Source of the DNA: Minisyncoccota bacterium
GTDB lineage: Bacteria; Patescibacteriota; Minisyncoccia; Phycocordibacterales; UBA9973
Direction: 5' to 3'
DNA: 64,000 nucleotides
Assembly (NCBI GenBank): GCA_041664285.1
Contig: JBAYLA010000001.1
Location: 138,092 to 202,091, forward strand
Shown: positions 32,598 through 58,018 of the stretch, piece by piece
How the letters are laid out: every line of letters starts with the position of its first letter
Numbering within the stretch: the stretch's first letter is position 1
Position numbers and translations under genes: made by a program
The notes under the pieces: model-generated
The model's input: the letters and a program-made list of their open reading frames with translations, nothing else
The model's database searches: none
What the model was told of the DNA's origin: nothing

Positions 32598-32681
32598 AAC
32601 TTTTTCCGGTACGGATTTTTTTCTGATGAAAAAAATCCTGAAGTTCTCGCGCCGTCGCACTCGAAACCCCCCAAAAGTTTA
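32598..32681 (-). repeat. 65-nt structured repeat family, copy 2 (reverse orientation, GCGC-gacg-GCGC variant)
   Basis: Reverse complement AAACTTTTGGGGGGTTTCGAGTGCGACGGCGCGAGAACTTCAGGATTTTTTTCATCAGAAAAAAATCCGTACCGGAAAAAGTTT. Confidence 0.7.
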
Positions 32682-32690
32682 TTTTAATTT

Positions 32691-33902
32691 CTATTTCTTA
32701 TTACGTCGTAAAAATGCTGGAACAGCGCTCCAGTCATCACCATCATCTTCAATAATTTCTTCCTTAACTTCTTTCTTTTCCATTTTCTTAATAAAATCAT
32801 TGTTACCTACACTTCCATTTTGTCTCCCGTTCTGCATATTATTTTGGATACTATTATTTATTTCTTTTTTTATTACCACTGGAGTTTCGTCTTTGAGAAG
32901 TTGGCCTACTACTGCCCCACTGTTAAAAAGATTTTTGCGAGGCATATCAGCAGGGAACGAGGTTGCTATCACGGTAACTTTTATTTCTCCCTTTTTCAAC
33001 TTTTCATCACGAATTGTTCCGAAGATTACTTTCGCATCTTTGTCGATTGATTCAGTAATTATTTTTGCGGCTTCTTGAATTTCATTAATAGTCAAATCAT
33101 CGCCACCAGAGATAGCGAAGAGCACCCCTTTCGCGCCGTGAATAGAAACTTCCAAGAGAGGAGAATTAATAGCAGCCAAAGCAGCTTTTTCAGCTCGCTT
33201 TTCTCCAGAAGCATTACCAATACCCATCAGAGCTGAACCAGCATTTGCCATGACAGCTTTAATATCTGCAAAATCAACATTAATGATACCCGGAGTAGTA
33301 ATTAAATCAGAAATACCTTCAACTGCTTGACGTAATACATCATCGCATTTAACAAAAGCATCTTTGAAATTAGTATTTTTATCAGCCAATTGGAGTAATT
33401 TATCGTTTGGAATAATAATGATAGCATCAACTTCTTTAGCCAAATCATCAATTCCTTTCTCGGCTATTTTCATTCGGTGATTTCCTTCAAAGAAGAAAGG
33501 TTTGGTTGTGACCGCTACAGTCAAGATACCTTGTTCTCTAGCTGCGCGAGCCACGATCGGAGCAGCGCCTGTCCCAGTACCTCCTCCCATTCCACAAGCT
33601 AGAAAAATCATGTCTGCTCCTTTGATGACATCTTGGATTTCAGACTTTGTTTCTTCAGCTGCTTTTTTTCCAACTTCTGGATCCATCCCAGCACCAAGAC
33701 CTTTTGTAAGATTTTTTCCTATATGAATTTTTTTCTCAGCCAGAGAGTGGTGTAAGTCTTGAGTATCTGTATTCATGCAAATAAAGGTGACCCCTTTAAC
33801 TTTAGAATTTATCATGTGGTTTACTGCATTCTTTCCAGAACCCCCGATTCCGATGACCATAATACGAGCAAAACTTTGTATTTCTTGATTTATTTTTGGC
33901 AT
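32691..33902 (-). CDS. ftsZ: cell division GTPase FtsZ
   Basis: IGIGGSGKNAVNHM...GMGGGTGTGAAPIVA tubulin/FtsZ signature. Confidence 0.95.
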   Translation of the reverse strand: MPKINQEIQSFARIMVIGIGGSGKNAVNHMINSKVKGVTFICMNTDTQDLHHSLAEKKIHIGKNLTKGLGAGMDPEVGKKAAEETKSEIQDVIKGADMIFLACGMGGGTGTGAAPIVARAAREQGILTVAVTTKPFFFEGNHRMKIAEKGIDDLAKEVDAIIIIPNDKLLQLADKNTNFKDAFVKCDDVLRQAVEGISDLITTPGIINVDFADIKAVMANAGSALMGIGNASGEKRAEKAALAAINSPLLEVSIHGAKGVLFAISGGDDLTINEIQEAAKIITESIDKDAKVIFGTIRDEKLKKGEIKVTVIATSFPADMPRKNLFNSGAVVGQLLKDETPVVIKKEINNSIQNNMQNGRQNGSVGNNDFIKKMEKKEVKEEIIEDDGDDWSAVPAFLRRNKK

Positions 33903-34061
33903 ATTTTTTAAAAAATTAATCCCTCGCTTTTGCTCGGGATCCCGACCTTAGGTCAGGACTTGTATGGAAACACACTACCACTAGAGCAAAAAAAAGCAAA
34001 CCAATTAAGTTCTGGTAATTATGTTCTAGTTTCTGGTCACTAGTATCTAACACTTAATTTC

Positions 34062-35225
34062 CTATGGCAAGAGTTGTTTTAAATTTGATGTTAAGATGTT
34101 TTTTAAATCTTTGAAAAAGTTTTTTAAGGTATCTTCTCCATAACTACCACCATCTTTATTAGAAATTAGAAGACCAATTACGTTTAGATAAGCCCCATCT
34201 CGGAGTTTTGTTTTTGTGTTGCCAAAAATTTCAGTTGACCCAATACTGGAAGGAAGTTTTAAAATTGATTTTGATAATTCTGCTAAAAGGGGAGTATTGG
34301 CACCACCACCGACAAAAACAATACCAGCTGGTAAAAGTTCTGACCTCTTTATTTTTTTTAAATTATTTTCTATTGATTCAAAAATATCACAAAGTCGTGC
34401 CTCGATTATTTCATCAAGTTTTTTCTTTGAAAACTCTTCCGTATTGTTTCCAAGTTTTAAAGCTTCTGCTTTTTCCAACGAAATTTTAAAACCAAGAGCG
34501 AGGTCGTTAGTTATTTTAGTTGAACCGATTGAAAAAGTTGTAATCGACATCAAGGATCCATTTTCAAAGACAGATAGCGAAGTTGTTTGATCCCCGATAT
34601 CAACTAATGCCACTCCAACGATTTTTTGTCTCTCAGACAAGGCAATATTACTAATAGCTAAAGGGGAGGCGATGACATCTATGGTGGCGACTCCAGCTTC
34701 AGCAATAGCTCCAAGTAAATCTTCTAAATGTATAATAGAATAGGTAACAAAAAGAGCTTTTGCCTCAAGCTTTGTTCCCGTCATTCCTTCAAGTCTACCA
34801 AACACTTCTTTTCCATCAAGGCGAAAAGTCTGTGGAAATATATGAATAATTTTTTTATTACCTAAGTTTAGATTATCTTCACAATCCTTTAGTGCCTTAT
34901 TAATGTCGAGAGTTGTTACTTCACCATCTGCTTTTGAAACTATTGTTCCACCAGAACTTACCTCACTCTTCAGAGTAGCGCCCGAAAGGGAAACGAAACA
35001 ACGTTTAATTTTTAGACCAGAAGTTTTCTCTGCTAAGGCAACTGCATTTTTTACAGAGGTAGCAACGAGAGAAGAATCTACCACGTAGCCGTATCGCATA
35101 CCTAATGTTGGGCTTTCACCCACGCCAATAATTTTAGGATTTTTTTCTCCTTTTAGAAATTCTCCGACCACAACTCGCGTCATGGAAGATCCCACGTCTA
35201 TTCCCACTGAAATATTTCTGATCAT
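34062..35225 (-). CDS. ftsA: cell division protein FtsA
   Basis: Actin-like ATPase GIDVGSSMTRVVVGE...VDIGDQTTSLSVF...GGGANTP; upstream of ftsZ. Confidence 0.88.
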   Translation of the reverse strand: MIRNISVGIDVGSSMTRVVVGEFLKGEKNPKIIGVGESPTLGMRYGYVVDSSLVATSVKNAVALAEKTSGLKIKRCFVSLSGATLKSEVSSGGTIVSKADGEVTTLDINKALKDCEDNLNLGNKKIIHIFPQTFRLDGKEVFGRLEGMTGTKLEAKALFVTYSIIHLEDLLGAIAEAGVATIDVIASPLAISNIALSERQKIVGVALVDIGDQTTSLSVFENGSLMSITTFSIGSTKITNDLALGFKISLEKAEALKLGNNTEEFSKKKLDEIIEARLCDIFESIENNLKKIKRSELLPAGIVFVGGGANTPLLAELSKSILKLPSSIGSTEIFGNTKTKLRDGAYLNVIGLLISNKDGGSYGEDTLKNFFKDLKNILTSNLKQLLP

Positions 35226-35541
35226 ATTTTTCCTCTAGTCTCTCCATTGTACTACTATGTTCGAAACCTTTCAAATGAAGCATTCCGTGGATAACTAAAA
35301 AGCCTAAAAATTGATCGAAAGTTCTTCCAAATTTTTTTGCTCCTTTTTTGATTACAGCAGGGCAGAGTATAATTTCACCCACATTTGTGCGAAGAGGAAA
35401 AGATAGGATATTGGTAGCTTTATCTATCTTCCTATATTTTTTATTTATTTTTCTAGATGTTCTCTCATCAACACAGGCAATTGACAGGGAATAGTTTTTT
35501 CCCAAAATATCATTTTTCATTATTGAAAAATCATCCTCCAT
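35134..35541 (-). CDS. ybeY: endoribonuclease YbeY (rRNA maturation factor)
   Basis: HGMLHLKGFEH zinc-binding motif. The 3' end overlaps the annotated ftsA start by about 90 nt. Confidence 0.8.
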   Translation of the reverse strand: MEDDFSIMKNDILGKNYSLSIACVDERTSRKINKKYRKIDKATNILSFPLRTNVGEIILCPAVIKKGAKKFGRTFDQFLGFLVIHGMLHLKGFEHSSTMERLEEKYDQKYFSGNRRGIFHDASCGRRISKRRKKS

Positions 35542-35543
35542 GT

Positions 35544-35777
35544 TTATTTAGTTACCATTTTGCCGAGCTTTTTGAGTTTCTCTATTTCTTTTCTTCTTTC
35601 GAGTTTCTTCAGAGCACTTTTTTTATTTTTAAGTTTTGACTCTTTTCTTAAATTATAGCGAGCACCTTTAACTTTACGGATAATACCGGACTCTTGAATT
35701 CTGCGCGAAAAGCGACGCAAAACGCTTGCATTATTTTCATTTGGATTTTTCTTCACTTCGATTACTGTTTTTGCCAT
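35544..35777 (-). CDS. rpsU: 30S ribosomal protein bS21
   Basis: MAKTVIEVKKNPNENNASVLRRFSRRIQESGIIRKVKGARYNLRKESK... is a typical S21. Confidence 0.85.
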   Translation of the reverse strand: MAKTVIEVKKNPNENNASVLRRFSRRIQESGIIRKVKGARYNLRKESKLKNKKSALKKLERRKEIEKLKKLGKMVTK

Positions 35778-35903
35778 ATGGTTACAAGATTAGCATAATT
35801 TTTTTTTAAAGCAAGCATGCATACTTAAATTTCAAGTGTCTAAGCAAGTATTTCTTCCTTTTTTTATTGACTTTTTTACAAAAAAAGATAATATTAGAAA
35901 ATT

Positions 35904-36371
35904 ATGCAACAAGCAGGAGATTATATAACTGAAGAAAAAAGGCAAATGCTTTTGGTAGAGTTGGCAGACCTTAAGGGGCCAAAAAGAAAAGAAATTCTAA
36001 AAAGTTTAGAGTATTCCAAGTCATTGGGTGACTTATCAGAAAATGCCGAATATCATCAAGCTCGTGAAGATCAAGGCAAATTAGAAGCACGAATTGTTAA
36101 AATAGAACAAATTTTACAATCTTCCCAAACGGTCAAAGGGGGTGGAGGAGATATCATCGAAATTGGCTCTAAAGTAGTTGTTCAGAAAAAGGGAACAAAA
36201 GATGAGAAAAAATATGTTATAGTAGGTTCAGAGGAAGCAGACATGAAAGTAGGGAAGATTTCTAATCGATCACCCTTTGGTACTGCGCTTTTTGGTAAAA
36301 AGAAAGGCGACAATGTTTCATTTAAAACTCCCAATGGTTTGGTTAATTATGAAATCATAAATGTTTCCTAA
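35904..36371 (+). CDS. greA: transcription elongation factor GreA
   Basis: N-terminal coiled coil ...LSENAEYHQAREDQGKLEARI... and C-terminal FKBP-like domain. Confidence 0.85.
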   Translation: MQQAGDYITEEKRQMLLVELADLKGPKRKEILKSLEYSKSLGDLSENAEYHQAREDQGKLEARIVKIEQILQSSQTVKGGGGDIIEIGSKVVVQKKGTKDEKKYVIVGSEEADMKVGKISNRSPFGTALFGKKKGDNVSFKTPNGLVNYEIINVS

Positions 36372-36383
36372 GCTGAAAAAATT

Positions 36384-37844
36384 ATGTCTTCAATTGATGA
36401 AATTAGGGACGCTAGAATAAAAAAACTTAAACTCTTAGAAAGTAGAGGATATAAGGCATATCCAGCAGATTCTTTGAGAGAAATTTCTCTGAAAGAGGCA
36501 TTTGATAATTTTGAAAATCTTGAAAAAGGTAAAGAAACAAAATGGATTGCAGGCAGAATAATGTCTATTCGTGGACAGGGGGCTATTGTTTTTATTACCT
36601 TAAATGATGGAACTGGAACTTTTCAAGGATTACTAAAAAAAGATATTCTCGGTGATGAAAAATTTAATTTTTGGAATGATGTCGTTGACATCGGAGACTT
36701 TGTAGAGACACAAGGAACTTTCTTTACCACAAAAAGAGGAGAGAAGACACTTGAGGTAAAAGATTGGCACATGCTTTCAAAAAGTTTGAGACCTCTACCT
36801 GAAAAATGGCATGGCTTAGTGGACGTAGAAGAAAGATTCCGAAAAAGATATTTAGATATTTTAATGAACCCGGAGATGAAAGAGCTTTTTGAGAAGAAGG
36901 CAAAATTTTGGGATGTGACTCGTAATTTTCTGAAAAAAGAAAATTTTCTAGAAGTTGAAACTCCAACCCTAGAAGTGACCACAGGCGGAGCAGAAGCGAG
37001 ACCTTTTGGAACTCACCATAATGATTTTGATATGGATGTCTATATGCGTATTTCAGTCGGGGAACTCTGGCAGAAGAGATTGATGACGGCTGGGTTTCCT
37101 AGAACTTTTGAAATAGGTAGAGTTTATAGGAATGAGGGAGGAAGCCCAGAGCACACCCAAGAATTCACCAATATGGAATTCTACGCCTCTTTTATGAACA
37201 TAAACGAAGGGAAAAAATTGGTCAGAGATTTGTATATAAAAATAGCGAAGGAAGTTTTTGGAAAAACTGAATTTGAAACTAGAGGACATAAATTTAATTT
37301 GAGCGGGGATTGGGGAGAAATAGATTATGTAGAAGAAATCAAAAAACAAACAGGAATTGATGTCTTGGAGGATTCAGAGGAAAAAATGGAAAAGACATTA
37401 AAGAAATTGAAAGTAGAGTTTCAGGGAAAAAATAGAGAGAGAATGACTGACTCACTTTGGAAATTTTGTCGCAAGAATATTTCTGGTCCGGTGTTTCTTG
37501 TAAATCATCCCAAGCTCGTTGCTCCTCTTTCCAAAGAAAATGGGGAAGACAATCGAAAAACAGAAATGTTTCAAGTGATTATTGCTGGAAGTGAGATCGG
37601 GAGAGCTCATGCAGAATTAAATGACCCTGTTGATCAGAAAAAAAGGTTTGACGAACAGAAGAAATTGATTGAAGGAGGGGATAAAGAAGCGATGATGTCT
37701 GATATGGAATTTGTGGAGATGCTTGAATATGGCATGCCCCCATGTTTCGGTTTCGGTTTCGGTGAAAGGTTCTTTGCTTTTCTGGTAGATAAACCGATTC
37801 GCGAAATTCAGCTATTCCCCCTAATGAGACCGGTTAAAGATTAA
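36384..37844 (+). CDS. lysS: lysyl-tRNA synthetase (class II)
   Basis: OB-fold N-domain; class II motifs FLEVETP, GRVYRNEG, and GFGFGERF at the C-terminus. Confidence 0.9.
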   Translation: MSSIDEIRDARIKKLKLLESRGYKAYPADSLREISLKEAFDNFENLEKGKETKWIAGRIMSIRGQGAIVFITLNDGTGTFQGLLKKDILGDEKFNFWNDVVDIGDFVETQGTFFTTKRGEKTLEVKDWHMLSKSLRPLPEKWHGLVDVEERFRKRYLDILMNPEMKELFEKKAKFWDVTRNFLKKENFLEVETPTLEVTTGGAEARPFGTHHNDFDMDVYMRISVGELWQKRLMTAGFPRTFEIGRVYRNEGGSPEHTQEFTNMEFYASFMNINEGKKLVRDLYIKIAKEVFGKTEFETRGHKFNLSGDWGEIDYVEEIKKQTGIDVLEDSEEKMEKTLKKLKVEFQGKNRERMTDSLWKFCRKNISGPVFLVNHPKLVAPLSKENGEDNRKTEMFQVIIAGSEIGRAHAELNDPVDQKKRFDEQKKLIEGGDKEAMMSDMEFVEMLEYGMPPCFGFGFGERFFAFLVDKPIREIQLFPLMRPVKD

Positions 37845-37899
37845 ATAATAATATTAAAAAACCACCAAATTGGTGGTTTTTTAATATATACCCTTCACT

Positions 37900-38550: not shown

Positions 38551-38552
38551 TT

Positions 38553-38927: not shown

Positions 38928-38991
38928 ACATGATCTTATAAACGCCCTTAAGCGTGCAATAAACTAATAAAAAAGACTAAATAATACTAGT

Positions 38992-39585: not shown

Positions 39586-39597
39586 TTAGTAAGAAGT

Positions 39598-39702
39598 GAT
39601 CTTCGAAAGCATAATTTAGGGGGTTTCGAGGCTGTCGAGCCGAGAACTTCAGGATTTTTTAAGCTTCAAAAAATCTGTACCCTAAATTATGCTTTCGAAG
39701 AT
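39598..39702 (+). repeat. 65-nt structured repeat family, copy 1 (GGCT-gtcg-AGCC variant) with 23-bp perfect terminal inverted repeats
   Basis: ATCTTCGAAAGCATAATTTAGGG-GGTTTCGAGGCTGTCGAGCCGAGAACTTCAGGATTTTTTAAGCTTCAAAAAATCTGTA-CCCTAAATTATGCTTTCGAAGAT. Confidence 0.75.
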
Positions 39703-39711
39703 AAGAAAATT

Positions 39712-42693: not shown

Positions 42694-42699
42694 TCCTAT

Positions 42700-44320: not shown

Positions 44321-45691
44321 TTAATACCTATTAAGTTTAAAAGCAGCAGTTGTCTTAGGACCTACTATTCCATCAACCACTAATCCTGGAACACTAGTTT
44401 GGAAAGCTTTCACAGCTGCATAAGTTTTCGGACCAAATTTTCCGTCCAGAACTAAACCTGATCCTAAACTCTTTTGTAAACAAACAACATCAGCACCAGA
44501 CAAACCACGTCTTAAGGTTCTACCGATTGTACAAGTTGAAGAAAAATTACCAAGTTTCAAAGCAGCAGTTGTCTTAGGACCTACTATTCCATCAACCACT
44601 AATCCTGGAACACTAGTTTGAAAAGCTTTCACAGCTGCATAAGTTTTCGGACCAAATTTTCCGTCCAGAACTAAACCTGATCCTAAACTCTTTTGTAAAC
44701 AAACAACATCAGCACCAGTTGAACCACGCCTTAAGGTTCTATTAATTGAACAAGAAGAAGTAGGTGCTGACAGAACTCCGCAAGATATTCCCGTGATTAC
44801 ACTAAAACCTACGGATGAAGTACAACCTAATGGATAGCTTCCGCAAGGTTTTCCTGTGGTTATACTAAAACCGGAAGCAGAACTACAACCATAAGGGAGG
44901 CCTGTTGTTGGATCGTAATCAGAATTTGAAGAAGAATTTGAATTTGTTTGATTAATCACTGGCGTCACCCCACAAGAGCCACCCGTAATTACACTAACCC
45001 CCAAAGATGAGTTACAACCTAATGGATAGAGTCCACAAGATATCCCCGTGGTTGTACTAAATCCTGAAGTAGAAGAACTACAACCGCAAAGGAGACCTGT
45101 ATTTTGATCGTAACCAGAAATTAAACAAGTTGAGGTAGAATTTGAATTATTTAAATTACCTGAAGTAACCGAAATACTCGAAGTATTAGAATTATTTAGA
45201 TTATTTGAATTAGTCGAATTGGGGGAGGTTTTTTCTGACGTTTTCTCTATACAAGACTTTCCTGTGGTTGGACTAAAACCCGAAGAAGAAGAACTACAAC
45301 CACAAAGGAAACCTGTTGTTAAATCATGATCATTTACACAGTTTGGATCAGAAAAAGATGTGTTAGGTTGTACAGTGCCACAATATTCTCCCTTATTTGT
45401 AAGCCAATCTGTAGCTGCTGAGCAACCACAACTAAAACCTGTCGTTGTATCATAACCATTTTCACAAGTCGGATCAGAAGATGTGAAAGTTGCAGAATTT
45501 GCTTTGACGCAACTTTCTCCTGTAAATATATTATAGCCAGAAGTTATACTACTACAGCCACTAGCCACACTAGTACCACTGCTCACACTAGTACTACCAG
45601 TTACTATAGTTGCATTTGCAGAGTTTGTATTAAATAAAAACAAACCTAAAACAAAGATAAAAGTAAGCGAAATTAATTTATATTTTTTCAT
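44321..45691 (-). CDS. secreted cysteine-rich repeat protein with two C-terminal peptidoglycan-binding (PG_binding_1-like) domains
   Basis: Signal peptide MKKYKLISLTFIFVLGLFLF...ANA. Repeated DxxTG(F/L)xCGCS modules. Two copies of ...GADVVCLQKSLGSGLVLDGKFGPKTYAAVKAFQTSVPGLVVDGIVGPKTTAA.... Start moved to M42 of the track ORF. Confidence 0.6.
   Translation of the reverse strand: MKKYKLISLTFIFVLGLFLFNTNSANATIVTGSTSVSSGTSVASGCSSITSGYNIFTGESCVKANSATFTSSDPTCENGYDTTTGFSCGCSAATDWLTNKGEYCGTVQPNTSFSDPNCVNDHDLTTGFLCGCSSSSSGFSPTTGKSCIEKTSEKTSPNSTNSNNLNNSNTSSISVTSGNLNNSNSTSTCLISGYDQNTGLLCGCSSSTSGFSTTTGISCGLYPLGCNSSLGVSVITGGSCGVTPVINQTNSNSSSNSDYDPTTGLPYGCSSASGFSITTGKPCGSYPLGCTSSVGFSVITGISCGVLSAPTSSCSINRTLRRGSTGADVVCLQKSLGSGLVLDGKFGPKTYAAVKAFQTSVPGLVVDGIVGPKTTAALKLGNFSSTCTIGRTLRRGLSGADVVCLQKSLGSGLVLDGKFGPKTYAAVKAFQTSVPGLVVDGIVGPKTTAAFKLNRY
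44324..44781. repeat. tandem duplication (2 x roughly 229 bp, about 95% identical) encoding the two PG-binding domains
   Basis: AGTTTAAAAGCAGCAGTTGTCTTAGGACCTACTATTCCATCAACCACTAATCCTGGAACACTAGTTTGGAAAGC... recurs from 44553 with few substitutions. Confidence 0.8.
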
Positions 45692-45766
45692 AACTTTGAT
45701 TATATCAAATAATATATAAAAGTATATCATATTAAAATTTTTTAGATTTTTTGTATAATGTAAACT

Positions 45767-46207
45767 ATGAAGCTTGATATGCTTACAAAAAGAGCTATAC
45801 AGCATACTCTCCATTGTTTGTTGGGGTGTTCGATAGGTGAAATCCTAGGTATGTCCATAACTACTTGGCTTGGTTGGGAAACACTAGTGAAGGTGATCTT
45901 TTCTATACCACTTGCGTTCCTTTTTGGATATCTACTCACTTCTTGGTCGCTTGTGCGCAGGGGTGTATCTTGGCGTGCAGCCATCAAGACTACGATTGCC
46001 ACGGACACAATCTCAATATTATCAATGGAGATAGTAGATAGTGTATTTCTATTTTTTATTCCGGGCGCAATGAATGTACATCTAGGTGATTTACTTTATT
46101 GGTTTAAACTACTTTCTGCACTTGTGACCGCCTTTTTATTTACTGTTCCAGTCAATCGTTTTTTTATAGCTCGAAACAGCGAGGAGCATCATGTGCATAC
46201 TCACTAG
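45767..46207 (+). CDS. hypothetical multi-TM membrane protein with an HCLLGCSIGE motif
   Basis: Track ORF, 146 aa, 4 predicted TM helices. Confidence 0.4.
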   Translation: MKLDMLTKRAIQHTLHCLLGCSIGEILGMSITTWLGWETLVKVIFSIPLAFLFGYLLTSWSLVRRGVSWRAAIKTTIATDTISILSMEIVDSVFLFFIPGAMNVHLGDLLYWFKLLSALVTAFLFTVPVNRFFIARNSEEHHVHTH

Positions 46208-48106: not shown

Positions 48107-48145
48107 TTGGTTATTTTAACATATTTTGATATAATAAAAAGTATA

Positions 48146-48246
48146 TAAAATATAATTTTTCGCAGGGGTTTCGTAGGCTGTCGAGCTTTGAACTCCAATC
48201 TTTTTTTCACCAGAAAAAAATCCGTACCGAAGAAAAATTGATATTT
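48146..48246 (+). repeat. 65-nt structured repeat family, copy 3 (diverged 3' half)
   Basis: AAATATAATTTTTCGCAGGGGTTTCGTAGGCTGTCGAGCTTTGAACTCCAATCTTTTTTTCACCAGAAAAAAATCCGTACCGAAGAAAAATTGATATTTT. Confidence 0.7.
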
Positions 48247-48265
48247 TATATACTTTTGCTTATTT

Positions 48266-48718: not shown

Positions 48719-48724
48719 TCATTT

Positions 48725-49330: not shown

Positions 49331-50252
49331 AAAATTAAAATTAGTTACACATAATGGATCTTTTCATGGAGATGACGTTTTTGCTTGTGCTACTCTAATT
49401 CTTTATTTAGAAAAAAACAATAAAGAATTTTCCGCCCAAGGCGGACCAGCCTCTGGCTGGGAAGTATTTCGCACCAGAGATCCTGAGATCATAGAGAATG
49501 GCGAGTATGTTTTTGATGTGGGTGGAATTTACGACGAAGAAAAGAATAGATTTGACCATCATCAAAAAGGTGGTGCTGGGAAAAGAGGGAATGGTATAGA
49601 ATATTCGTCTTTTGGTTTAGTTTGGAAAAAGTTTGGAATAGAAATTTGTGAATCTCAGAAAATTTTTGACACAGTAGATAGGAAATTAGTTTCTCCTATT
49701 GATGCTGACGATAATGGAATTGATTTATACAAAAATAATTTTGAAAACGTTTTGCCCTATACAATAAACGATGTTTTGTCTATTTTTTCTAAAACAGCCC
49801 TGGAAGACATAGATAAAGACGAGCAATTTTTTAAAGCAGTTGTTTGGGCAAAAGAAATTTTAAGCAGAGAAATAAAAAGAACCAGTGATCAAATAGAAAT
49901 TACAAAAATTATTCAGGATTTTTATAAAAATAGTCAAGACAAAAGATTGGTCGTTATAGACAAGCCGAAAGTTTCTAGACATGAAATTTATGATGCATTA
50001 CAAGATTTTCCTGAACCTCTTTTCATTGTTTACGGTGATAGCGAAGATTGGGGAGTTGTAGCTATGAGAAAAGAAATAAATAGTTTCAAAAACAGAAAAG
50101 ATTTTCCACAAAATTGGGGAGGTTTGAGAGAAGAAGAATTACAGAAAATTACTGGTGTATCGGATGCAGTTTTTTGCCATCGAGCACTTTTCCTAGCAGT
50201 AGCGAAAACTAAAGAAGGAGCTATCAAATTAGCAGAAATTGCGGTAGAATAA
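49317..50252 (+). CDS. MYG1/UPF0160 family metal-dependent hydrolase
   Basis: LKLVTHNGSFHGDDVFACATL N-terminal signature; conserved H/D residues throughout. Confidence 0.75.
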   Translation: MTNNKKLKLVTHNGSFHGDDVFACATLILYLEKNNKEFSAQGGPASGWEVFRTRDPEIIENGEYVFDVGGIYDEEKNRFDHHQKGGAGKRGNGIEYSSFGLVWKKFGIEICESQKIFDTVDRKLVSPIDADDNGIDLYKNNFENVLPYTINDVLSIFSKTALEDIDKDEQFFKAVVWAKEILSREIKRTSDQIEITKIIQDFYKNSQDKRLVVIDKPKVSRHEIYDALQDFPEPLFIVYGDSEDWGVVAMRKEINSFKNRKDFPQNWGGLREEELQKITGVSDAVFCHRALFLAVAKTKEGAIKLAEIAVE

Positions 50253-50265
50253 CAATTAGCTCATA

Positions 50266-50364
50266 AAATATAATTTTTCGCAGGGGTTTCGTAGGCTGTC
50301 GAGCCGAGAACTTCAAGATTTTTTAAGCTTCAAAAAATCTGTACCGGAGAAAAATTGATATTTT
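50266..50364 (+). repeat. 65-nt structured repeat family, copy 4
   Basis: AAATATAATTTTTCGCAGGGGTTTCGTAGGCTGTCGAGCCGAGAACTTCAAGATTTTTTAAGCTTCAAAAAATCTGTACCGGAGAAAAATTGATATTTT. Confidence 0.75.
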
Positions 50365-50384
50365 GTGAGCTAATAATTAAACCT

Positions 50385-51398: not shown

Positions 51399-51401
51399 TT
51401 T

Positions 51402-52832
51402 ATGGCAAATAAGTATTATCCAACAATTGGACTTGAAATTCACGCAGAGTTAAAAACACAAACGAAAATGTTTTGTGGTTGTAAGAATGACCCAGATGAA
51501 GAAAAGCCCAATGTAAATATTTGCCCAGTTTGCATGGCACATCCAGGAGCCTTACCGGTGTTAAATAAAAAAGCGATAGAGAATGTGATAAAAGTTGGAT
51601 TAGCAGTTAATGGAACAATTGCTGACTTTACAGAATTTGATCGTAAGAATTATTTTTACCCAGATATTCCTAAAGGATATCAGATTTCTCAATATAAATA
51701 TCCAATAGTTTCTGGTGGTAAGTTGGCCGAAATGGATATTACTCGGGTGCACTTAGAAGAAGATACTGCGAATAATAAACATGATCGTGGAGACTTCTCT
51801 TTAATTGACTTTAATCGTGCCGGAGTACCTTTAATGGAGCTTGTGACCGAACCTCATACATTTTCGAATGCAGAAGAAGCAGCCAAAAAAGCAACTAAGT
51901 TTGCCAAAGAGTTTCAGTTGATACTTTGGTATTTAGGTGTGTCTGAAGCCAATATGGAGAAAGGTGAAATGCGAGTTGAGGCCAATATTTCTATTTCTGC
52001 AGATCCGAAAATTCTTGGAACGAAAGTCGAAGTTAAAAATTTAAATTCTTTCAGGAGTGTTGAACGAGCTATTAAATATGAGATAGATAGAATGACCAAA
52101 CTTTTGGAAGAGGGTAAGGGGTCAGAAATTGTTCAAGAAACGCGAGGGTGGGATGATTCCAAACAGAAAACATTTTCTCAGAGAACAAAAGAGGGAAGTG
52201 CAGATTATCGATATTTTCCAGATCCCGATTTACCAAAGTTGAAACTCCATGAAGCTTTTGATTTAGAGAAAATGAAAAAAGAATTACCGGAATTACCAGC
52301 AGAAAAACGTGTTAGATATCAAAAAGATTTTGTAATTAAAGACGAAGACATAGAAAGCTATATCAACGACCAAGTGCTGGGTGCGTGGTTTGAAGAAATT
52401 GCAACAATTTTAAATAATAAAGAATTAGTAAAACTTGCTTCCAATTATATAACCTCAGACTATGTTGGTCTTAAAAACTCTAACCCAGAAATTAAACTGA
52501 CTAAGCCAGAAAATTTTGCTGAGCTTATTAAGATGACAAAGGATGGCTACATTTCTTCCCGTGCAACAAAAGATATAATGGGTAGAATTTTTATTCATGA
52601 TGAATCACCAAAGAAAATTGCTGAAGAAAATAACTTACTTCAAACCCATGACGAAGGAGAACTTAAAAAAATAGTAGAGAAGATAATTTCAGAAAATCCT
52701 GACGTGGTTGCAATTTATAAAGCTGGAAAAGAAAACGCTATTATGTCCCTAGTTGGTAAAATAATTAAAGAATCAAATGGTTCTGCTAATCCTCAAATTG
52801 TTATTAAATTGTTAAAAGAAATGCTAAAATAG
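51402..52832 (+). CDS. gatB: Asp-tRNA(Asn)/Glu-tRNA(Gln) amidotransferase subunit B
   Basis: YYPTIGLEIHAELKTQTKMFCGC...NICPVCMAHPG N-terminal GatB signature and a YqeY-like tail. Confidence 0.9.
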   Translation: MANKYYPTIGLEIHAELKTQTKMFCGCKNDPDEEKPNVNICPVCMAHPGALPVLNKKAIENVIKVGLAVNGTIADFTEFDRKNYFYPDIPKGYQISQYKYPIVSGGKLAEMDITRVHLEEDTANNKHDRGDFSLIDFNRAGVPLMELVTEPHTFSNAEEAAKKATKFAKEFQLILWYLGVSEANMEKGEMRVEANISISADPKILGTKVEVKNLNSFRSVERAIKYEIDRMTKLLEEGKGSEIVQETRGWDDSKQKTFSQRTKEGSADYRYFPDPDLPKLKLHEAFDLEKMKKELPELPAEKRVRYQKDFVIKDEDIESYINDQVLGAWFEEIATILNNKELVKLASNYITSDYVGLKNSNPEIKLTKPENFAELIKMTKDGYISSRATKDIMGRIFIHDESPKKIAEENNLLQTHDEGELKKIVEKIISENPDVVAIYKAGKENAIMSLVGKIIKESNGSANPQIVIKLLKEMLK

Positions 52833-52836
52833 GTTA

Positions 52837-53703
52837 ATGAAAACCTTAAGAGAATATATAAAAGAAGCGGAAGAAAAAGGCGTAGCCATCGGGCATTTTA
52901 ATATTTCTAATTTAGAAGGATTTCATGGTGTTTACCATTCAGCCAAGAAATTAAATGTGCCTGTTATCATTGGGCTTTCCGAAGGCGAAGAAGATTTTGT
53001 TGGAAGGAATGAAGCCATAGGAATGATTAAGGAAATTAGGGAAAAAGAAAATTTTCCAATTTTTCTAAATGCAGATCATCACTATAGTTTTGAAAGAGTG
53101 AAACTTGCTATTGATGCTGGTTTTGATTCGGTAATTTTTGATGGTGCTAATTTAAGTTTTGAAGAGAATGTAAAAATTACTAAAGAGTGTGTGGAGTATG
53201 CCCATAAAATTATAAAAGAAACAGGACGAGATATTTTAGTTGAGGCAGAGATTGGCTTTATTGGTTCTGGTTCAAATATAAAAGACACAATTCCAGAAGG
53301 TGCTGGAGTTTTAACTAAACCTGAAGAAGCAAAAAAATTCGTTGAATTAACAGGCTTAGATATGCTTGCGCCGTCTGTTGGAAGTATCCATGGTTTGATA
53401 AAAAGTGGTAAACCACACATTGATGCAGAATTGGTTGCTGAAATAAAAAAGGCAACTGGTATTCCATTGGTATTGCATGGTGGTTCAGGATTGAGAGATG
53501 TTGACTTTACTAATGCAGCAAAGGCAGGAATTTCGATTATTCATATCAGCACTGAGATCAGGTTGTCTTATGACGAAGCACTTAAAAAGTCTTTATTAGA
53601 CAATCCTAACGAAACTACACCTTATAAAATATTACAACCAGCTGTAGATGCTATAGAAAAAGTAGTAGAAAACAGATTGAAACTTTTTAACGGAATAGAA
53701 TAA
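52837..53703 (+). CDS. fba: class II fructose-bisphosphate aldolase family protein
   Basis: ...LNADHHYSFE...VIFDG...HGGSG... class II aldolase motifs. Confidence 0.85.
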   Translation: MKTLREYIKEAEEKGVAIGHFNISNLEGFHGVYHSAKKLNVPVIIGLSEGEEDFVGRNEAIGMIKEIREKENFPIFLNADHHYSFERVKLAIDAGFDSVIFDGANLSFEENVKITKECVEYAHKIIKETGRDILVEAEIGFIGSGSNIKDTIPEGAGVLTKPEEAKKFVELTGLDMLAPSVGSIHGLIKSGKPHIDAELVAEIKKATGIPLVLHGGSGLRDVDFTNAAKAGISIIHISTEIRLSYDEALKKSLLDNPNETTPYKILQPAVDAIEKVVENRLKLFNGIE

Positions 53704-55434
53704 ATGAAAGAATCTAAAACTCCTAAATTTGACGCATTGATAGATAAAATTTTAGATGAATTAATTCCTCACGTTAGAATTTGCCCAGATTGCAAAAAAG
53801 AATTTAAGATTGAAAATGATGACATTGTGTTTTATAGAATATTTCGAGTTCCTCCATCTAAGCTTTGCCCTAATTGTCGCCAGAAACGTCGATTGGCCTA
53901 CGCTAATTATTCAAGTATTTATAAACGTAAGTGTGATGTTCCTGGTCACTCAGATATTATGATTTCACCTGTGGCACCTGTGATGCCTTGGATTACTTAT
54001 GATTATGAGACATATTATTCTGATGTTTGGGACCCATTTTCTTATGGGAAAGATGTAAAACAAGGAGAATCTTTTTTTGATCAATTTTTAAATTTATTGA
54101 AAGTTATTCCTCAGCCAGGAGTGCGTCGTGGTGAAAATTCTCCCAATTCTGATTTTAGTTTTTATGGGAAAAACATGAAAGATTGCTATTATGTTTTTGG
54201 TGGACGATATTCAGAAGATGTTATGTTTTCTTCCTCAATTTATCGTTCAAAACATGTTTTAGATTCTTACTCTGTTTACGATGTTGATACTGTTTTTAAT
54301 AACATTGGCACCAATGGAAGTTATAAAACAAACTACGCATATTTTTCTTCAAATTGTATTGATTGTGATTTTATTTTTGATTGTCGAAATTGTCAGAATT
54401 GTTTCGGTTGCGTGAATTTACGCAATAAGAATTATTGTTATTTTAATGAACAATTAACTAAAGAGGAATATAAAACAAAAAGAAAAAATATAGATTTAGG
54501 TAGTATTAAAACAGCGAAAGAATATCAAGAAAAATTTTTCAACTTTCTTAAAGAAAACTCCATTCGAGCTGTCAGAATTTCTCAATCAAATAATTGCTTC
54601 GGTGAAGATATTCGTAAGTCCAATAATTGTCAGCATTGTTATCAAGTTGAAGAATCAGAAAATTTAAAATATGCATCTTTTGCGATTGTTCTTTTAAGAG
54701 ACTCTATGGACGTAGGGCATTCTGGAGGAGCAGAGAAAATATATTATTCACAAAATTGTGGTACTAAATCTTCTAATATTAAATTTTCTTTTGCTATAAA
54801 AGAATCAATAGATTGCGAGTATATTATGTCTTCAAAAAATTGCACTAATTGTTTTGGCTGTGTAGGACTTCAGAATGCTTCATATTGCATATTTAATAAA
54901 AAGTATTCCCCAGATGAATACTGGAAAATTTTAGATGAAATTAAAAGTACGATGTTAATAAGTGGAGATTACGGAGAATTTTTTCCAATGTCTTTTGCTC
55001 CTTGTGCCTATAATAGTTCCTTGGCAAATATTTTATATCCAATGACGGAAGAAGAAGCAAAGTCAAATGGAGTTTTTTGGCAACAAGATACCAATGTTGA
55101 TTTAAAAGATCTGAAAAGCATTCCTGCAAGTGATTTGCCCGACAATGTAGATGATGTTACGGAAAGTCTTTATCAGAATGCGATTATAGGGTATTTTTCA
55201 AAAAAACCATTTAAAATTATTCCTAGAGAAGTTGCATTTTATAAAAAGAATAGATTACCACTTCCGACGGATACGCCTTATCAACGTACAATTGATAGAT
55301 TTAAATTTTTAAATAATTTTCAAGTTTATCCAGAAAATTGTTTTTCTTGCAATAAAGAAATTGAATCATCTTTTAGAAAAGTTGATGGATATAAACCTCT
55401 TTGTGAACAATGTTATCAGAGAGAAATTTTATAG
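53704..55434 (+). CDS. large cysteine-rich protein, paralog 3 (more diverged)
   Basis: N-terminal CPDCKKEFKIENDDIVFYRIFRVPPSKLCPNCRQKRRL; CRNCQNCFGCVNLRNKNYCYFNEQLTKEEYK and CTNCFGCVGLQNASYCIFNKKYSPDEY blocks; the C-terminal ribbon is partly degenerate. Confidence 0.7.
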   Translation: MKESKTPKFDALIDKILDELIPHVRICPDCKKEFKIENDDIVFYRIFRVPPSKLCPNCRQKRRLAYANYSSIYKRKCDVPGHSDIMISPVAPVMPWITYDYETYYSDVWDPFSYGKDVKQGESFFDQFLNLLKVIPQPGVRRGENSPNSDFSFYGKNMKDCYYVFGGRYSEDVMFSSSIYRSKHVLDSYSVYDVDTVFNNIGTNGSYKTNYAYFSSNCIDCDFIFDCRNCQNCFGCVNLRNKNYCYFNEQLTKEEYKTKRKNIDLGSIKTAKEYQEKFFNFLKENSIRAVRISQSNNCFGEDIRKSNNCQHCYQVEESENLKYASFAIVLLRDSMDVGHSGGAEKIYYSQNCGTKSSNIKFSFAIKESIDCEYIMSSKNCTNCFGCVGLQNASYCIFNKKYSPDEYWKILDEIKSTMLISGDYGEFFPMSFAPCAYNSSLANILYPMTEEEAKSNGVFWQQDTNVDLKDLKSIPASDLPDNVDDVTESLYQNAIIGYFSKKPFKIIPREVAFYKKNRLPLPTDTPYQRTIDRFKFLNNFQVYPENCFSCNKEIESSFRKVDGYKPLCEQCYQREIL

Positions 55435-55520
55435 TTTAAATTTGCTTTTTTGTCATTTTTATATATACCCGTACACTTATTCGAATGATATTACATCAGG
55501 TTATTTTTGACTTTTAATAA

Positions 55521-56219
55521 GTGTTCGGGTATACTATCCTTATGTTTATAATTAAAGCTACAAAGAGAGAGGCAGGTGTTAAATTAGATAGTTTGAGAAA
55601 AGAGGGAGAAATCCCGGCTGTTTTTTATGGAGCGGGCAAAGAGACAACTTCTATTTCAGTTTCAATCGTTGATTTCAAGAAAGTCTGGCGAGAGGCAGGA
55701 GAATCTTCAGCTGTTAAAATTGAAATGTTAAATAGTAATATTGATGTGCTTATTCATGAAGTACAAGTTGACCCAATAACTAGTGAGCCAATTCATGTGG
55801 ACTTTTTAGCAATCGATATGAAAAAGAAAATTCGTGTTCACATCCCACTTGAATTTGAGGGTATCTCTGCTGCAGTTAAAAGTGGACTTGGAAATCTTGT
55901 TAAGGTTATCCATGAGCTTGAAATTGAAGCACTTCCTTCCGACTTACCTCACAATCTTGTTGTTGATCTTTCTAAACTAAACACACTCGATGATCAAATC
56001 TTTGTTTCTGATATTAAACTTCCTACTGGAGTTGCTGTTATTAACGAACCAACTGAAGTTGTAGTTTCTGTTGTTGAACAAGTGGAAGAAAAAGAAGAAG
56101 TTGCCGCCCCAGTTGATCTATCTGCTATTGAAGTTGAAAAGAAAGGCAAAAAAGACGAGGAAGGGGCTGAAGGAGTTGCACCTACAGCAGCAGAAGAGAA
56201 AAAGACGGAAAAAAAATAA
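55521..56219 (+). CDS. rplY: 50S ribosomal protein bL25 (general stress protein Ctc form)
   Basis: ...IKATKREAGVKLDSLRKEGEIPAVFYG... plus an acidic C-terminal tail; the real start may be the ATG at about 55542. Confidence 0.8.
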   Translation: MFGYTILMFIIKATKREAGVKLDSLRKEGEIPAVFYGAGKETTSISVSIVDFKKVWREAGESSAVKIEMLNSNIDVLIHEVQVDPITSEPIHVDFLAIDMKKKIRVHIPLEFEGISAAVKSGLGNLVKVIHELEIEALPSDLPHNLVVDLSKLNTLDDQIFVSDIKLPTGVAVINEPTEVVVSVVEQVEEKEEVAAPVDLSAIEVEKKGKKDEEGAEGVAPTAAEEKKTEKK

Positions 56220-56250
56220 CCTTATTCTCAAATATGATATAATAAAGACT

Positions 56251-57642
56251 ATGATCAAGAAATTAGTCATAGTCTTTGTTTTTATTTTTACCGCGTTACT
56301 TTTTTTCGGTTCTTTTGCGGTTCATAAAATTATAGCGGCTGATTGTTCTGACTCAATTTATGCCAAAGCGAATGAAACTGCTTGCCTTCAGGAACAGAAA
56401 GACTTAGAGGCTCAATTTATTGAATTATCAAAACAAAAAGCCAAATTAGACAAACAAAGTAGTACTTACGCCTTAGAAGTAAAAAAACTGACAACTCAGA
56501 TTAATGCCCTAAATGCTAAAATAAAAGCTCGAGTTTTAGTTATTACTCAATTAAAAATACACATAGGAGAAAAGGTCAATACCATTAACTCACTTTCTAA
56601 GAAGATAGACCGCGAGCACTCATCACTTGCTCAACTTTTAAGAAATACAAATGAATTCGATAATAATAATTTGGTAAATTTAATTTTGTCTAACGAGAGT
56701 ATTTTTGATTTTTATAGTGATTTGGAGTCTTATAATTCTATCAAGCAGGCAATCAAAGATTCTGTTGATGTTATCAATGGAGTAAAAACTGAAACAGAAG
56801 TACAAAAAAAAGATTTAGAAATAAAACAAGATGCCGAAACTGATGCTAAGTATGAATTAGAGAGTGCTCAAAAACAAGCGGCTCAATTAAAAACAGAAAA
56901 TAGTATACTTAAAGCTGGAGTAGATAATCAAGCAGCAACCGTTAAAAAACTTGCAGATGAAAAAAAAGCTAGGGCTAATAAAATTAGAAATGCCCTAATT
57001 CAGTTTCAGGGTAGTGGTATCTCTAATAAAGAGATAAAATTTGGAGAAGCATATGATTATGCTAAAAAGGCATCATTAAAAACTGGAGTTCGAGCAGCTC
57101 TTATTTTAGCTATTATGCAACAAGAAACTAGTTTTGGTAGTAATTTTGGTGGATGTTATGTTACTAACTTGACAACAGGAGATGGTAAGGGAATTAACAC
57201 TGGTGCTTTTTATGAAAAAGTTATGGGACTTGGAAGTTTAGGTTATTTTAAACGCATCACAGAAAGTCTTGGACTTGATTGGAGCAATACACCTGTTTCA
57301 TGTCCAATTGATATTAAGGGTCGTGGTACCGCAACAAAGTATTATGACGGGCGTGGTTATGGAGGTGCTATGGGATATACACAATTTATTCCAAGTACAT
57401 GGGTATTAGTTGAAGCACGAGTTTGTTCCAATCTTTTAGTTGAGACTGCCAATCCATGGAATCCAGAACATGCTGTTATGGCAACTGCAGTACATTTACA
57501 AGATTTAGGTGCAGGAAAGCAAACATATACAGCAGAGCATAATGCTGCTTGTAAATATTATGGATCTTGTTCTAGTTATGCAAGCTCGGTAATGAAAAAA
57601 GCTACGAGCATACAGATGGATATAGATAATCTTGAAGATTAA
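56251..57642 (+). CDS. secreted coiled-coil protein with a C-terminal lytic-transglycosylase (SLT)-like domain
   Basis: Signal/TM MIKKLVIVFVFIFTALLFFGSFA; about 250 aa of coiled coil; SLT-like AIMQQETSFGSN (catalytic Glu) and GAMGYTQFIPSTW. Start at M61 of the track ORF. Confidence 0.55.
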   Translation: MIKKLVIVFVFIFTALLFFGSFAVHKIIAADCSDSIYAKANETACLQEQKDLEAQFIELSKQKAKLDKQSSTYALEVKKLTTQINALNAKIKARVLVITQLKIHIGEKVNTINSLSKKIDREHSSLAQLLRNTNEFDNNNLVNLILSNESIFDFYSDLESYNSIKQAIKDSVDVINGVKTETEVQKKDLEIKQDAETDAKYELESAQKQAAQLKTENSILKAGVDNQAATVKKLADEKKARANKIRNALIQFQGSGISNKEIKFGEAYDYAKKASLKTGVRAALILAIMQQETSFGSNFGGCYVTNLTTGDGKGINTGAFYEKVMGLGSLGYFKRITESLGLDWSNTPVSCPIDIKGRGTATKYYDGRGYGGAMGYTQFIPSTWVLVEARVCSNLLVETANPWNPEHAVMATAVHLQDLGAGKQTYTAEHNAACKYYGSCSSYASSVMKKATSIQMDIDNLED

Positions 57643-57695
57643 TAGAACGATTTTTGCTTGCTTTCAAGTTAAAATTATGATAATGTTTTTGAGCA

Positions 57696-57920
57696 ATGAA
57701 AAAAGATATACATCCAAAATATAATTTAAAGACTAAAGCTATCTGTGCTTGTGGAGCTGTTTTTGAAGTTGGTTCCACGATGCCAGAAATTAAAATGGAA
57801 ATTTGTAGCCAATGTCATCCTTTCTATACTGGTAATGAAAAAATAATGGATACGGCTGGACGAGTAGAAAGATTCAATAAACGTAGAGCTGCAACTCCTA
57901 AAGCTAAGGTAAAAAAATAA
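57696..57920 (+). CDS. rpmE: 50S ribosomal protein bL31
   Basis: MKKDIHPKY...C.C...[10 protein letters not shown] is a typical L31 with zinc-ribbon cysteines. Confidence 0.9.
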
Positions 57921-57932
57921 AAGATTTAAAAA

Positions 57933-58018
57933 CCGAAATTTTTATCGGTACAGATTTTTTGAAGCTTAAAAAATCCTGAAGTTCTCGCGCCGTCGCGCTC
58001 GAAACCCCTTAAAAATTT
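57933..58018 (-). repeat. 65-nt structured repeat family, copy 5 (reverse orientation, GCGC-gacg-GCGC variant)
   Basis: Reverse complement AAATTTTTAAGGGGTTTCGAGCGCGACGGCGCGAGAACTTCAGGATTTTTTAAGCTTCAAAAAATCTGTACCGATAAAAATTT. Confidence 0.75.

Follow-up and report, generated by a model that had tools for sequence, protein, structure and literature searches.

We describe here a family of repeats in a 64,000-nucleotide stretch of the genome of a Minisyncoccota bacterium (GenBank assembly GCA_041664285.1, contig JBAYLA010000001.1, positions 138,092 to 202,091 of the forward strand; the whole stretch is hereafter called the window). Five repeats in the window are true copies of an apparently undescribed family of hairpin-shaped DNA insertions, ~105–135 bp in length, in ultra-small Patescibacteria. 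On balance, the family is probably a small, non-autonomous and Patescibacteria-specific mobile hairpin of the kind represented by transposable elements of the miniature inverted-repeat type (MITEs) and repetitive extragenic palindromic (REP) sequences. The arms and the core of the hairpin enter as one unit, in intergenic spacers that are very short; 7-bp direct repeats flank the youngest copies, as a staggered cut would give; copies persist and are vertically inherited at the same intergenic sites while being lost in other lineages; and some lineages have the core plus the inner arms inverted in situ.

R1, a covariance model based on 67 copies, was run on the window with its filters off and returned exactly five matches, scoring 104.1, 96.9, 87.6, 78.4 and 58.9 bits, and the best non-member match in the window reached 14.4 bits. 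These are the five copies, on the same strands, that had been listed earlier by a reading of the letters and open reading frames (ORFs) alone, hereafter called the sequence-only reading. Each copy has a 61–63-nt asymmetric core within AT-rich inverted arms of 22–33 bp, in a window with a G+C content of 34.8%. Alignment of the five gave the shared core GGGGTTTCG(T)AG-(4-bp stem, GNCG loop)-CGAGAACTTCAGG-(A/T hairpin)-CYGTACC, and the consensus written down earlier is correct both in this alignment and on direct reading. The elements are 104–133 bp long, non-coding and dispersed, and with five copies in 64 kb they have the size and copy number of MITEs. Their localizations are as follows:

32578–32698, minus strand: copy c1, whole element, core 32608–32669; 78.4 bits; arms of 26 nt, 88% complementary.
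39599–39702, plus strand: copy c2, whole element, core 39618–39681; 104.1 bits; 23-bp perfect arms.
48131–48263, plus strand: copy c3, degenerate, core 48166–48228; 58.9 bits; helices P2 and P3 (described below) partly broken.
50250–50379, plus strand: copy c4, core 50284–50345; 96.9 bits.
57910–58042, minus strand: copy c5, core 57947–58007; 87.6 bits.

Some details of the sequence-only reading required amendment. The positions it gave for the copies are right, but the elements are longer, the arms reaching the limits listed above. The two variants of its first hairpin, GGCU/AGCC and GCGC/GCGC, are indeed compensatory, but they differ at three base pairs and not two, and the 32.6-kb copy has U.G at one of these. 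The AAGCTT loop ascribed to the whole family is present in the 39.6-, 50.3- and 58.0-kb copies, the other two having TCATCAG and TCACCAG; similarly, the perfect 23-bp arms exist but belong to the 39.6-kb copy and not to the first one listed. The idea that the terminal inverted repeats (TIRs) constitute a related motif was not sustained, since the arms are semi-conserved only in the 8–12 bp adjoining the core and are copy-specific beyond.

All five copies are intergenic, as had been claimed, but the further statement that they mark operon boundaries does not apply to two of them. Copy c2 occupies the spacer between mraZ and rsmH, and c3, within the divergent exoX/yqeY pair, is inserted directly 3' of a TATAAT box upstream of yqeY, i.e. 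between this -10 box and the yqeY start codon. Copy c1 lies between the ftsZ stop and the trxB start in the sense orientation, its outer 5' arm overlapping the last ftsZ codons (AGAAATAG), and c4 lies, also in the sense orientation, in the spacer between a MYG1-family gene and obg. Copy c5 is situated between the stop of rpmE and the start of a release-factor gene, antisense to both, with its outer arm beginning within the A-run at the rpmE stop; the small gene before c5 and after a transglycosylase gene (57697–57915, plus strand) is the one that we take to be rpmE (L31-like), from its MKKDIHPKY... start. The gene content of the window includes dcw genes, ftsA/ftsZ, greA and aspS, and the RsmH encoded there is identical to the one in an NCBI MAG (metagenome-assembled genome) with the name Candidatus Paceibacterota bacterium.

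The expectation that copies would occur beyond the window was borne out. Species-representative genomes were scanned with the pattern GGGTTTCG-N12-18-GAGAACTTCA, which biases the sample toward conserved cores, and at least 114 loci were obtained; genomes other than that of the window were covered as 8–20-kb pieces, amounting to ~0.5 Mb of loci. Among the matches listed, those with a 13-nt spacing plus the rest of the core came in all cases from MAGs of Patescibacteria. The hosts, whose NCBI taxon labels are possibly imprecise, were labelled Nomurabacteria, Paceibacterota, Saccharibacteria, Yanofskybacteria and others, with at least 70 further copies, and R1 identified 82 copies in 70 loci. Pattern matches in GC-rich phyla and in viral contigs do not belong to the family, as they lie in coding DNA without the rest of the core, and ten matches in viral contigs are attributable to chance on the same ground. 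A blastn search of phage and plasmid collections with c2 gave no match. The whole window yielded only tRNAs when compared with Rfam at gathering thresholds, and c2, compared at E up to 10 with 4227 Rfam families, among them hammerhead, twister, twister-sister, pistol and hatchet, yielded no more than weak hairpins of the microRNA type with scores well under threshold. No description of the hairpin family was found in the literature, whether by topic or by sequence words.

The most direct evidence for insertion came from two syntenic relatives, L129 and L130, whose RsmH proteins are 79% and 78% identical to that of the window. The occupancy of the c1–c4 sites in these relatives was:

c1 site, ftsZ–trxB: empty in L129 (14 nt) and in L130 (14 nt).
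c2 site, mraZ–rsmH: empty in L129 (23 nt) and in L130 (1 nt).
c3 site, exoX–yqeY: empty in L129 (35 nt) and in L130 (35 nt).
c4 site, MYG1–obg: filled in L129 (19561–19649, 97.5 bits, opposite strand, with related arms, CTCATAAAATA); empty in L130 (2 nt).

At every empty site the arms were absent together with the core, which is the presence/absence pattern of a MITE, and therefore the arms come and go with the core. Insertion of a core into a pre-existing hairpin is ruled out for c1–c4 by these arm-free sites; it is possible at the rpmE site. There, between rpmE and the release-factor gene, the window carries the present family in reverse, L062 a divergent GC-rich relative in the forward direction, L040 a palindrome with a different core (family 2, see below), and L084 a core-less hairpin of the form A-tract/stem/T-tract.

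Same-site occupancy was determined by tblastn of the flanking proteins against all loci. The mraZ–rsmH site is filled in L005, L080 and L088, in all three opposite to the window orientation; ftsZ–trxB is filled in L059, oriented as in the window and with arms related to those of c1; and exoX–yqeY is filled in L078 at the identical insertion point, directly 3' of GATATAAT, in the opposite orientation. Hence the core is flipped at orthologous sites between c4 and L129, between c2 and each of L005, L080 and L088, and between c3 and L078. When the arms were compared among ~100 copies, the best match of c2 was L005 (score 23; next 9, median -6) and that of c1 was L059 (score 32), so that orthologous copies best-match each other, confirming the orthology. 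Six same-site cases were seen, against ~0.4 expected at random under the rough assumption of 800 intergenic sites per genome; therefore many copies are old, vertically inherited, inverted in place and lost in some lineages.

Signs of recent mobility come from a Nomurabacteria MAG (MFTH01), in which several copies are near-identical and have ~40-nt arms (TGAATTACGAAACTCGTCGAAGGCATGTC...). The five testable copies in this genome are all flanked, outside 3-nt tips, by direct repeats of 7–8 nt (TAAGTAA, ATTTTACA, TATACAA, TCAAAAC and TTTATCA). Across the family, direct repeats of at least 7 nt were found at 6/66 copies, the sixth being L062, versus 1.3% when left and right flanks were randomly paired (p ~2e-4); most older copies have no direct repeat. 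In the window, one candidate target-site duplication (TSD) was observed:

39590–39595 and 39702–39707: TAAGAA, candidate 6-bp TSD of c2, with the 3-nt tip GTG at 39596–39598.

Relative to a fixed core orientation, the tips in MFTH01 read TCA...AAG in some copies and CTT...YGA in others, and therefore flip and flop forms coexist in one genome.

Every copy folds, as RNA, into one long stem (P1) of 22–33 bp that is AT-rich, mostly copy-specific in sequence, and topped by a three-way junction. The parts of the core are given here for c2, in the predicted fold:

39623–39647, plus strand: P2, GUU(U)C-GA-GGCU(GUCG)AGCC-GA-GAAC, loop in the second pair of brackets.
39648–39651 and 39677–39679, plus strand: junction strands UUCA and GUA.
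39652–39676, plus strand: P3, GGAUUUUUU(AAGCUUC)AAAAAAUCU, loop in brackets.

P2 is made up of a basal helix, symmetric tandem G.A pairs, a covarying 4-bp apical stem and a loop of the form GNCG. The family form of P3, an A/U hairpin, is GGAUUUUUU(AAGCUUC)AAAAAAUCY, with AAGCUUC or CANCAG as the loop. On the core-sense strand, the copies have RNA fold energies between -29 and -49 kcal/mol and z-scores between -3.1 and -8.6, c2 reaching -48.7 kcal/mol (z = -8.6), and the opposite strand folds similarly as RNA. Folded as DNA, the two strands of c2 are equally good at -31.7 and -31.3 kcal/mol.

The claim that this is a structured repeat family with compensatory covariation was upheld in the 67-sequence alignment. 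Paired cells amounted to 87.1%, versus 35–58% when the partners were slid, and the covariation score was 0.303 versus 0.116 +/- 0.007 for shuffled alignments, with 0/500 shuffles reaching the observed value; the copies share a phylogeny, so all p-values given in this account are indicative only. Double substitutions were seen at 4/4 apical P2 pairs, 5/9 P3 pairs and 14/15 P1 pairs. One apical P2 pair is GC in 45 copies and CG in 19, another UA in 46 and CG in 17; the closing pair of P3 is GC (48), GU (14) or AU (4), and its apical pair UA (54) or CG (8). The basal P2 helix and the junction are near-invariant. RNAalifold, which was not given the helices, predicted the same three. Four divergent relatives (L060, L062, L043 and L108), which scored weakly with R1 (25–34 bits) and stand in a more GC-rich context, follow the same plan in another sequence: P1 is long, P2 reads C-G(C)A-(GGCY GNCG RGCC)-GA-G, and P3 has an AGCA-type loop, the junction sequences not being conserved. 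As the architecture is retained while the sequence has changed, these relatives and the family proper form a structural superfamily. In three copies of the family proper (L054:6283–6363, L068:1002–1083 and L096:3119–3199), a short GC-rich hairpin (e.g. CCTGCCTGCCGGCAGGCAGG, or CCACCCCGCC...GGCGGGG) is inserted in the P3 loop.

Although both strands fold, certain features are fixed relative to the core. Mismatches in the arms are nearly balanced, with 63 G.U on the core-sense strand against 54 A.C (equivalent to G.U on the other strand); in the core the figures are 24 against 11, becoming 10 against 10 when one hot pair is dropped. In contrast to this symmetry, a single extra base ~11 bp out in the arm is found in the 3' arm of 40 copies and in the 5' arm of 2 (p = 4e-10). 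Purine-purine loops also travel with the core: P2 has GA/GA, and the top of P1 usually has GAA/GAA. On the opposite strand these would be pyrimidine mismatches. The long-arm subfamily has a further asymmetric internal loop, GUYGAA opposite NAGAAA. The three fixed asymmetries (the P2 loop, the P1 loop and the extrahelical base of the 3' arm) therefore imply that a folded single strand, either single-stranded DNA (ssDNA) or RNA, is recognized.

Taken as a mobile hairpin, the family could operate in the following way. The inserted unit is the entire hairpin, i.e. the AT-rich inverted arms of P1 plus the 61–63-nt asymmetric core. A trans-acting enzyme may read the folded core on a single strand, whether ssDNA (an extruded hairpin or a replication intermediate) or RNA, and may cut at the foot of the stem and not at a fixed terminal sequence; a cut made there regardless of terminal sequence would explain why the arms differ between copies. 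Complementarity of the arms could be kept by template switching within the hairpin, by gene conversion or by selection on the hairpin, and the inversions could result if the two arms recombined or if replication switched template from one to the other. For the host, effects would be secondary and possible at some sites, in the form of strong mRNA hairpins, insulation or termination. That hairpin insertions are active in this lineage is shown by other palindromic insertions of the same genome, among them two that are in frame, in tsaD and in an aminotransferase gene.

The origin of the arms was considered in this context. They are not guide-like copies of other loci: the c2 arms occur nowhere else in the window, and the AT-rich arms of the other copies give low-complexity matches only. 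In the 3' arm of c1 lies CTATTTCT, the complement of AGAAATAG at the ftsZ end, and AGAAATAG is present also at the empty sites; this single case is a hint that the palindrome may spread into the DNA beside it. That arms arise by inverted duplication of the flank is a possibility only. The c2 arm resembles the L129 spacer, and the 6-nt TSD and the orthologous arms in L005 and L059 explain c2 equally well as would a duplication of its flank.

We also advance, tentatively and with markedly less confidence than the mobile hairpin itself, the idea that the three-way junction, the fixed purine-purine loops and the one-arm extrahelical base could together be the recognition module of an undescribed structure-specific system of the Patescibacteria, be it a transposase or recombinase with its cut at the foot of the stem or an RNA- or DNA-binding machinery of the host. 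If a transposase or recombinase acted on an extruded or single-stranded hairpin with the foot sequence being irrelevant, the copy-specific arms, the 7-bp duplications and the flip and flop forms would all be accounted for. If a host machinery were responsible, the hairpins would be gene punctuation in genomes with almost no intergenic DNA, selected at orthologous sites phylum-wide.

Several observations weigh against a mobile element. Clear TSDs are confined to one young subfamily, apart from the 6-nt candidate at c2. The cognate transposase that the sequence-only reading had proposed to look for (IS200/IS605 TnpA or IS110) was not found in the DNA examined, and no transposase or other cognate gene lies near any copy in the ~0.5 Mb of loci; in the same loci, there was no solo TIR of the long-arm subfamily flanking a gene and no insertion sequence (IS) with matching ends. 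Clustering of the ORFs over 65 loci gave only housekeeping neighbors plus a paralogous zinc-finger family, which is present in 9/65 element-bearing loci, a frequency that is expected without linkage. The arms differ between copies within one genome, whereas classical MITEs moved by DDE transposases are conserved in their TIRs. Between co-directional genes, the antisense orientation prevails (27 antisense, 8 sense; p = 0.002), and this bias is unexplained; a further 14 copies lie between convergent genes and 7 between divergent ones. Finally, occupancy of the same intergenic sites extends to genomes with RsmH proteins that are only 58–64% identical, and the core is near-identical across divergent lineages; such same-site occupancy in streamlined genomes argues for host selection or a strong target preference.

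These last points bring forward the main rival explanation, which is compatible with a mobile origin and which we regard as unlikely: that P1, transcribed in either direction, is an RNA hairpin recruited by the host as a terminator, insulator, mRNA stabilizer or RNase III processing element, and is kept at its sites for that reason. The stems are highly stable as RNA, and distant genomes are occupied at the same sites. A gene 3' end adjoins the 3' side of the element in 44/63 cases and the 5' side in 26/61, no more than 7/56 copies are found between divergent genes, the ftsZ gene that precedes c1 is where the dcw cluster usually ends, and the site after rpmE bears some long hairpin in every genome compared (window, L062, L040 and L084). 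Against a host hairpin, c2 sits inside the mraZ–rsmH pair and c3 between a -10 box and a start codon, neither being at the end of a transcription unit, and four of the sites lack the element in close relatives. Moreover, an intrinsic terminator has a short GC-rich stem with a U-tract directly behind it and stands where a transcription unit ends, whereas these elements have AT-rich stems of 22–33 bp, a branched 61-nt tip and no consistent U-tract after the stem. A plain stem would suffice for such roles, leaving the asymmetric core, the G.A loops and the extrahelical base unexplained, and the window has ordinary short terminator-like hairpins elsewhere. One of these, a perfect 18-bp palindrome at 37851–37887 (ATATTAAAAAACCACCAA/TTGGTGGTTTTTTAATAT) directly after aspS, looks like an ordinary bidirectional intrinsic terminator.

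A structured non-coding RNA family or a self-cleaving ribozyme, with the three-way junction on the GGGGUUUCGAG strand as its active form, is a less probable explanation, and a doubtful one. Covariation in P2 and P3, the invariant junction nucleotides and the tandem sheared-type G.A pairs, which are sensible on one strand only, would suit it, as would the P3 closing pair (GC, GU and AU, with a single A.C) and the architecture retained by the divergent GC-rich relatives in spite of their changed sequence. The junction sequences of those relatives are nevertheless not conserved, and the Rfam comparison was negative. The sequence-only reading had offered small RNAs as one option, and this fits poorly with an element that occurs in both orientations, is antisense in 27/35 copies between co-directional genes, is flipped at orthologous sites, and has wobble mismatches (G.U and A.C) that are strand-symmetric except at one pair. 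No promoter or terminator is conserved alongside the core, and transcription that started at the core would preclude P1. A hammerhead core, sought by eye on both strands, was rejected: CUGANGA/GAAA is not satisfied, the 9th position and the junction lengths are wrong, and CTGATGA in c1 is merely the variable P3 loop.

Still less probable is a site acting at the level of DNA, such as an attC-like folded-ssDNA recombination site, an invertible switch, or a cruciform or protein-binding site for chromosome organization. Structure is conserved above arm sequence, the extrahelical base is fixed on one arm (40 versus 2) as in attC, the core has been inverted in situ at several sites, and both strands fold equally well as DNA. 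On the other hand, the neighbors are housekeeping genes in mixed orientation and do not form an array of promoterless cassettes, neither an integrase nor an invertase lies next to the elements, the invertible segment of 61 nt has no recognizable promoter, the stem foot does not conserve the R-box consensus of attC (RYYYAAC/GTTRRRY), and young copies have TSDs, an indication of transposition. Chance similarity, or a recent local duplication limited to the contig, is refuted, even though the five copies lie within 26 kb (32.6–58.0 kb) with none in the first 32 kb, by scores of 59–104 bits against 14 for the next best, by flanks and arms that differ among the copies, and by the dozens of copies in other genomes; the repeats are thus not a segmental duplication. 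Of the three options named by that reading, the MITE/REP-like mobile element fits best, given the arm-free empty sites, the 7-bp TSDs of young copies, and the intergenic position in both orientations.

A second palindromic family in the window has a 35-nt core (TCAGGATTTCCTGCTACGCAACGTCAACCATT) within copy-specific arms and is represented at 10847–10933, 4426–4492 and 14854–14900, and at L040:2725–2815. One copy is intergenic, directly after a tRNA, and two are in frame inside genes: the Pfam match of a class-V aminotransferase ends at the insertion, and TsaD contains a 23-aa insertion (PDASAQDFLLCNVNHSQKHTGSA) that is absent from its L129 orthologue. By analogy, this second family resembles the Rickettsia palindromic elements (RPEs). 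Peptide insertions of the GGSASGG / ARGGSALGG type are also present in TsaD of the window (~14509–14562) and of L129, and these may be coding-DNA examples of the type of mini-insertion seen as a GC-rich hairpin in the P3 loops. Two RsmH homologues, P0002 (81% identical) and P0005 (75%), have an internal insertion of ~25 aa (AKNFLETAPSESKGQGTHTFLKNSL), with none at that point in RsmH of the window; this may be another in-frame element.

Other features were recorded in passing. The zinc-finger family is represented in the window by three paralogues of ~570–600 aa with N-terminal treble-clef zinc fingers and no other recognized domain, and two further repeats were seen:

26946–28649, minus strand: zinc-finger paralogue.
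29766–31586, plus strand: zinc-finger paralogue.
53704–55434, plus strand: zinc-finger paralogue.
18235–18288 and 18879–18932: 54-nt direct repeat, 85% identical (GTGACCCTAATTATACGGAATTGGAAC...), with ~640 nt containing small ORFs between.
44333–45345 (ORF 44321–45814, minus strand): tandem repeats of ~195–219 nt in a protein with peptidoglycan-binding domains, unrelated to the hairpin family.

In L130, a large serine recombinase gene (L130:811–2442, GCA_043812335.1) lies beside trxB, where the window has different genes; it possibly marks an integrated element at that boundary.

The family is of wider relevance because the Patescibacteria have tiny, streamlined genomes in which very few mobile or regulatory non-coding elements have been described. 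This family and at least one other palindromic family, the latter in frame in essential genes, show that hairpin insertions are common in this group, long-lasting and invertible in place. The covariance model could be used to annotate unexplained intergenic DNA in thousands of MAGs, and the family could serve as a marker of insertion, loss and inversion dynamics, as a phylogenetic-profiling handle for the enzyme or binding protein, and as a natural test of long hairpins as gene punctuation.

Among known systems, the family most resembles REPs and REPINs, MITEs of the Correia, ERIC or bcr1 type, and RPEs, yet it fails the defining features of each, and no named family fits. The more distant comparisons can be dealt with briefly. 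Palindromic elements derived from IS200/IS605 (PATEs) have two similar subterminal hairpins, no TIR and no TSD, and insert 3' of a fixed tetra- or pentanucleotide; here P2 and P3 are unrelated in sequence, and long inverted arms and TSDs are present. In attC sites, as in this family, the functional form is a folded single strand whose stem sequence is poorly conserved while structure and extrahelical bases are conserved, and the apex can branch. Unlike our elements, attC sites follow promoterless cassettes in ordered arrays beside an integrase and have R''/R' boxes at the stem foot, and none of this was seen here, AAC/GTT being semi-conserved near the core and not at the stem foot. The T-shaped terminal hairpins of parvoviruses are alike in form only, with a long stem, two small unequal arms, and a branched tip in two inverted configurations (flip and flop). 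They are the telomeres of linear ssDNA viruses and are inverted by hairpin transfer, whereas our elements are internal chromosomal insertions for which no Rep-like gene is known.

The closer relatives in kind differ in what is conserved. Correia/NEMIS of Neisseria, ERIC, RUP, and bcr1 of the Bacillus cereus group are likewise ~100–160 bp in length, lie between genes with inverted ends and TSDs, and are co-transcribed as long hairpins in both orientations, some (bcr1) with compensatory changes. Those elements have conserved TIRs and a fixed TSD, which is TA for Correia and TTTAT for bcr1, whereas in this family the TIR is copy-specific and matches the ends of no IS in the loci examined, the TSD, where clear, is ~7 bp, and the core is branched and asymmetric with fixed non-Watson-Crick loops. 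REPs, bacterial interspersed mosaic elements (BIMEs) and REPINs, which are mobilized by RAYT transposases of the Y1 HUH type, are also short, intergenic, palindromic and multi-copy, are found mostly by gene 3' ends, and are thought to be recognized as a folded single strand; they too last long and keep their positions, and they may serve the host in mRNA stability and termination. However, a REP is an imperfect palindrome of 20–40 nt with a terminal GTAG or CGTC and no TSDs, whereas TSDs occur in our young copies, terminal GTAG/CGTC is absent, and GACG (CGTC on the other strand) is confined to the P2 loop; among the loci examined, which are 8–20-kb pieces, none showed a RAYT. In REPINs the arms are conserved and the loop is variable, whereas here the 61-nt three-way-junction center is conserved and the arms vary. 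A conserved center with variable arms is thus the reverse of both classical MITEs and REPINs, and its mechanism needs explaining. The RPEs of Rickettsia bear no sequence relation to the family and lack a clear TIR or TSD and a phylum-wide three-way-junction core, and RPE-1 inserts in frame into proteins, as does the second family of the window, whereas the family described here was seen only between genes. The likeness lies in their general character: RPEs are palindromes of ~100–150 bp in host-dependent bacteria with reduced genomes, and they are old, are inherited vertically and keep their positions from species to species.

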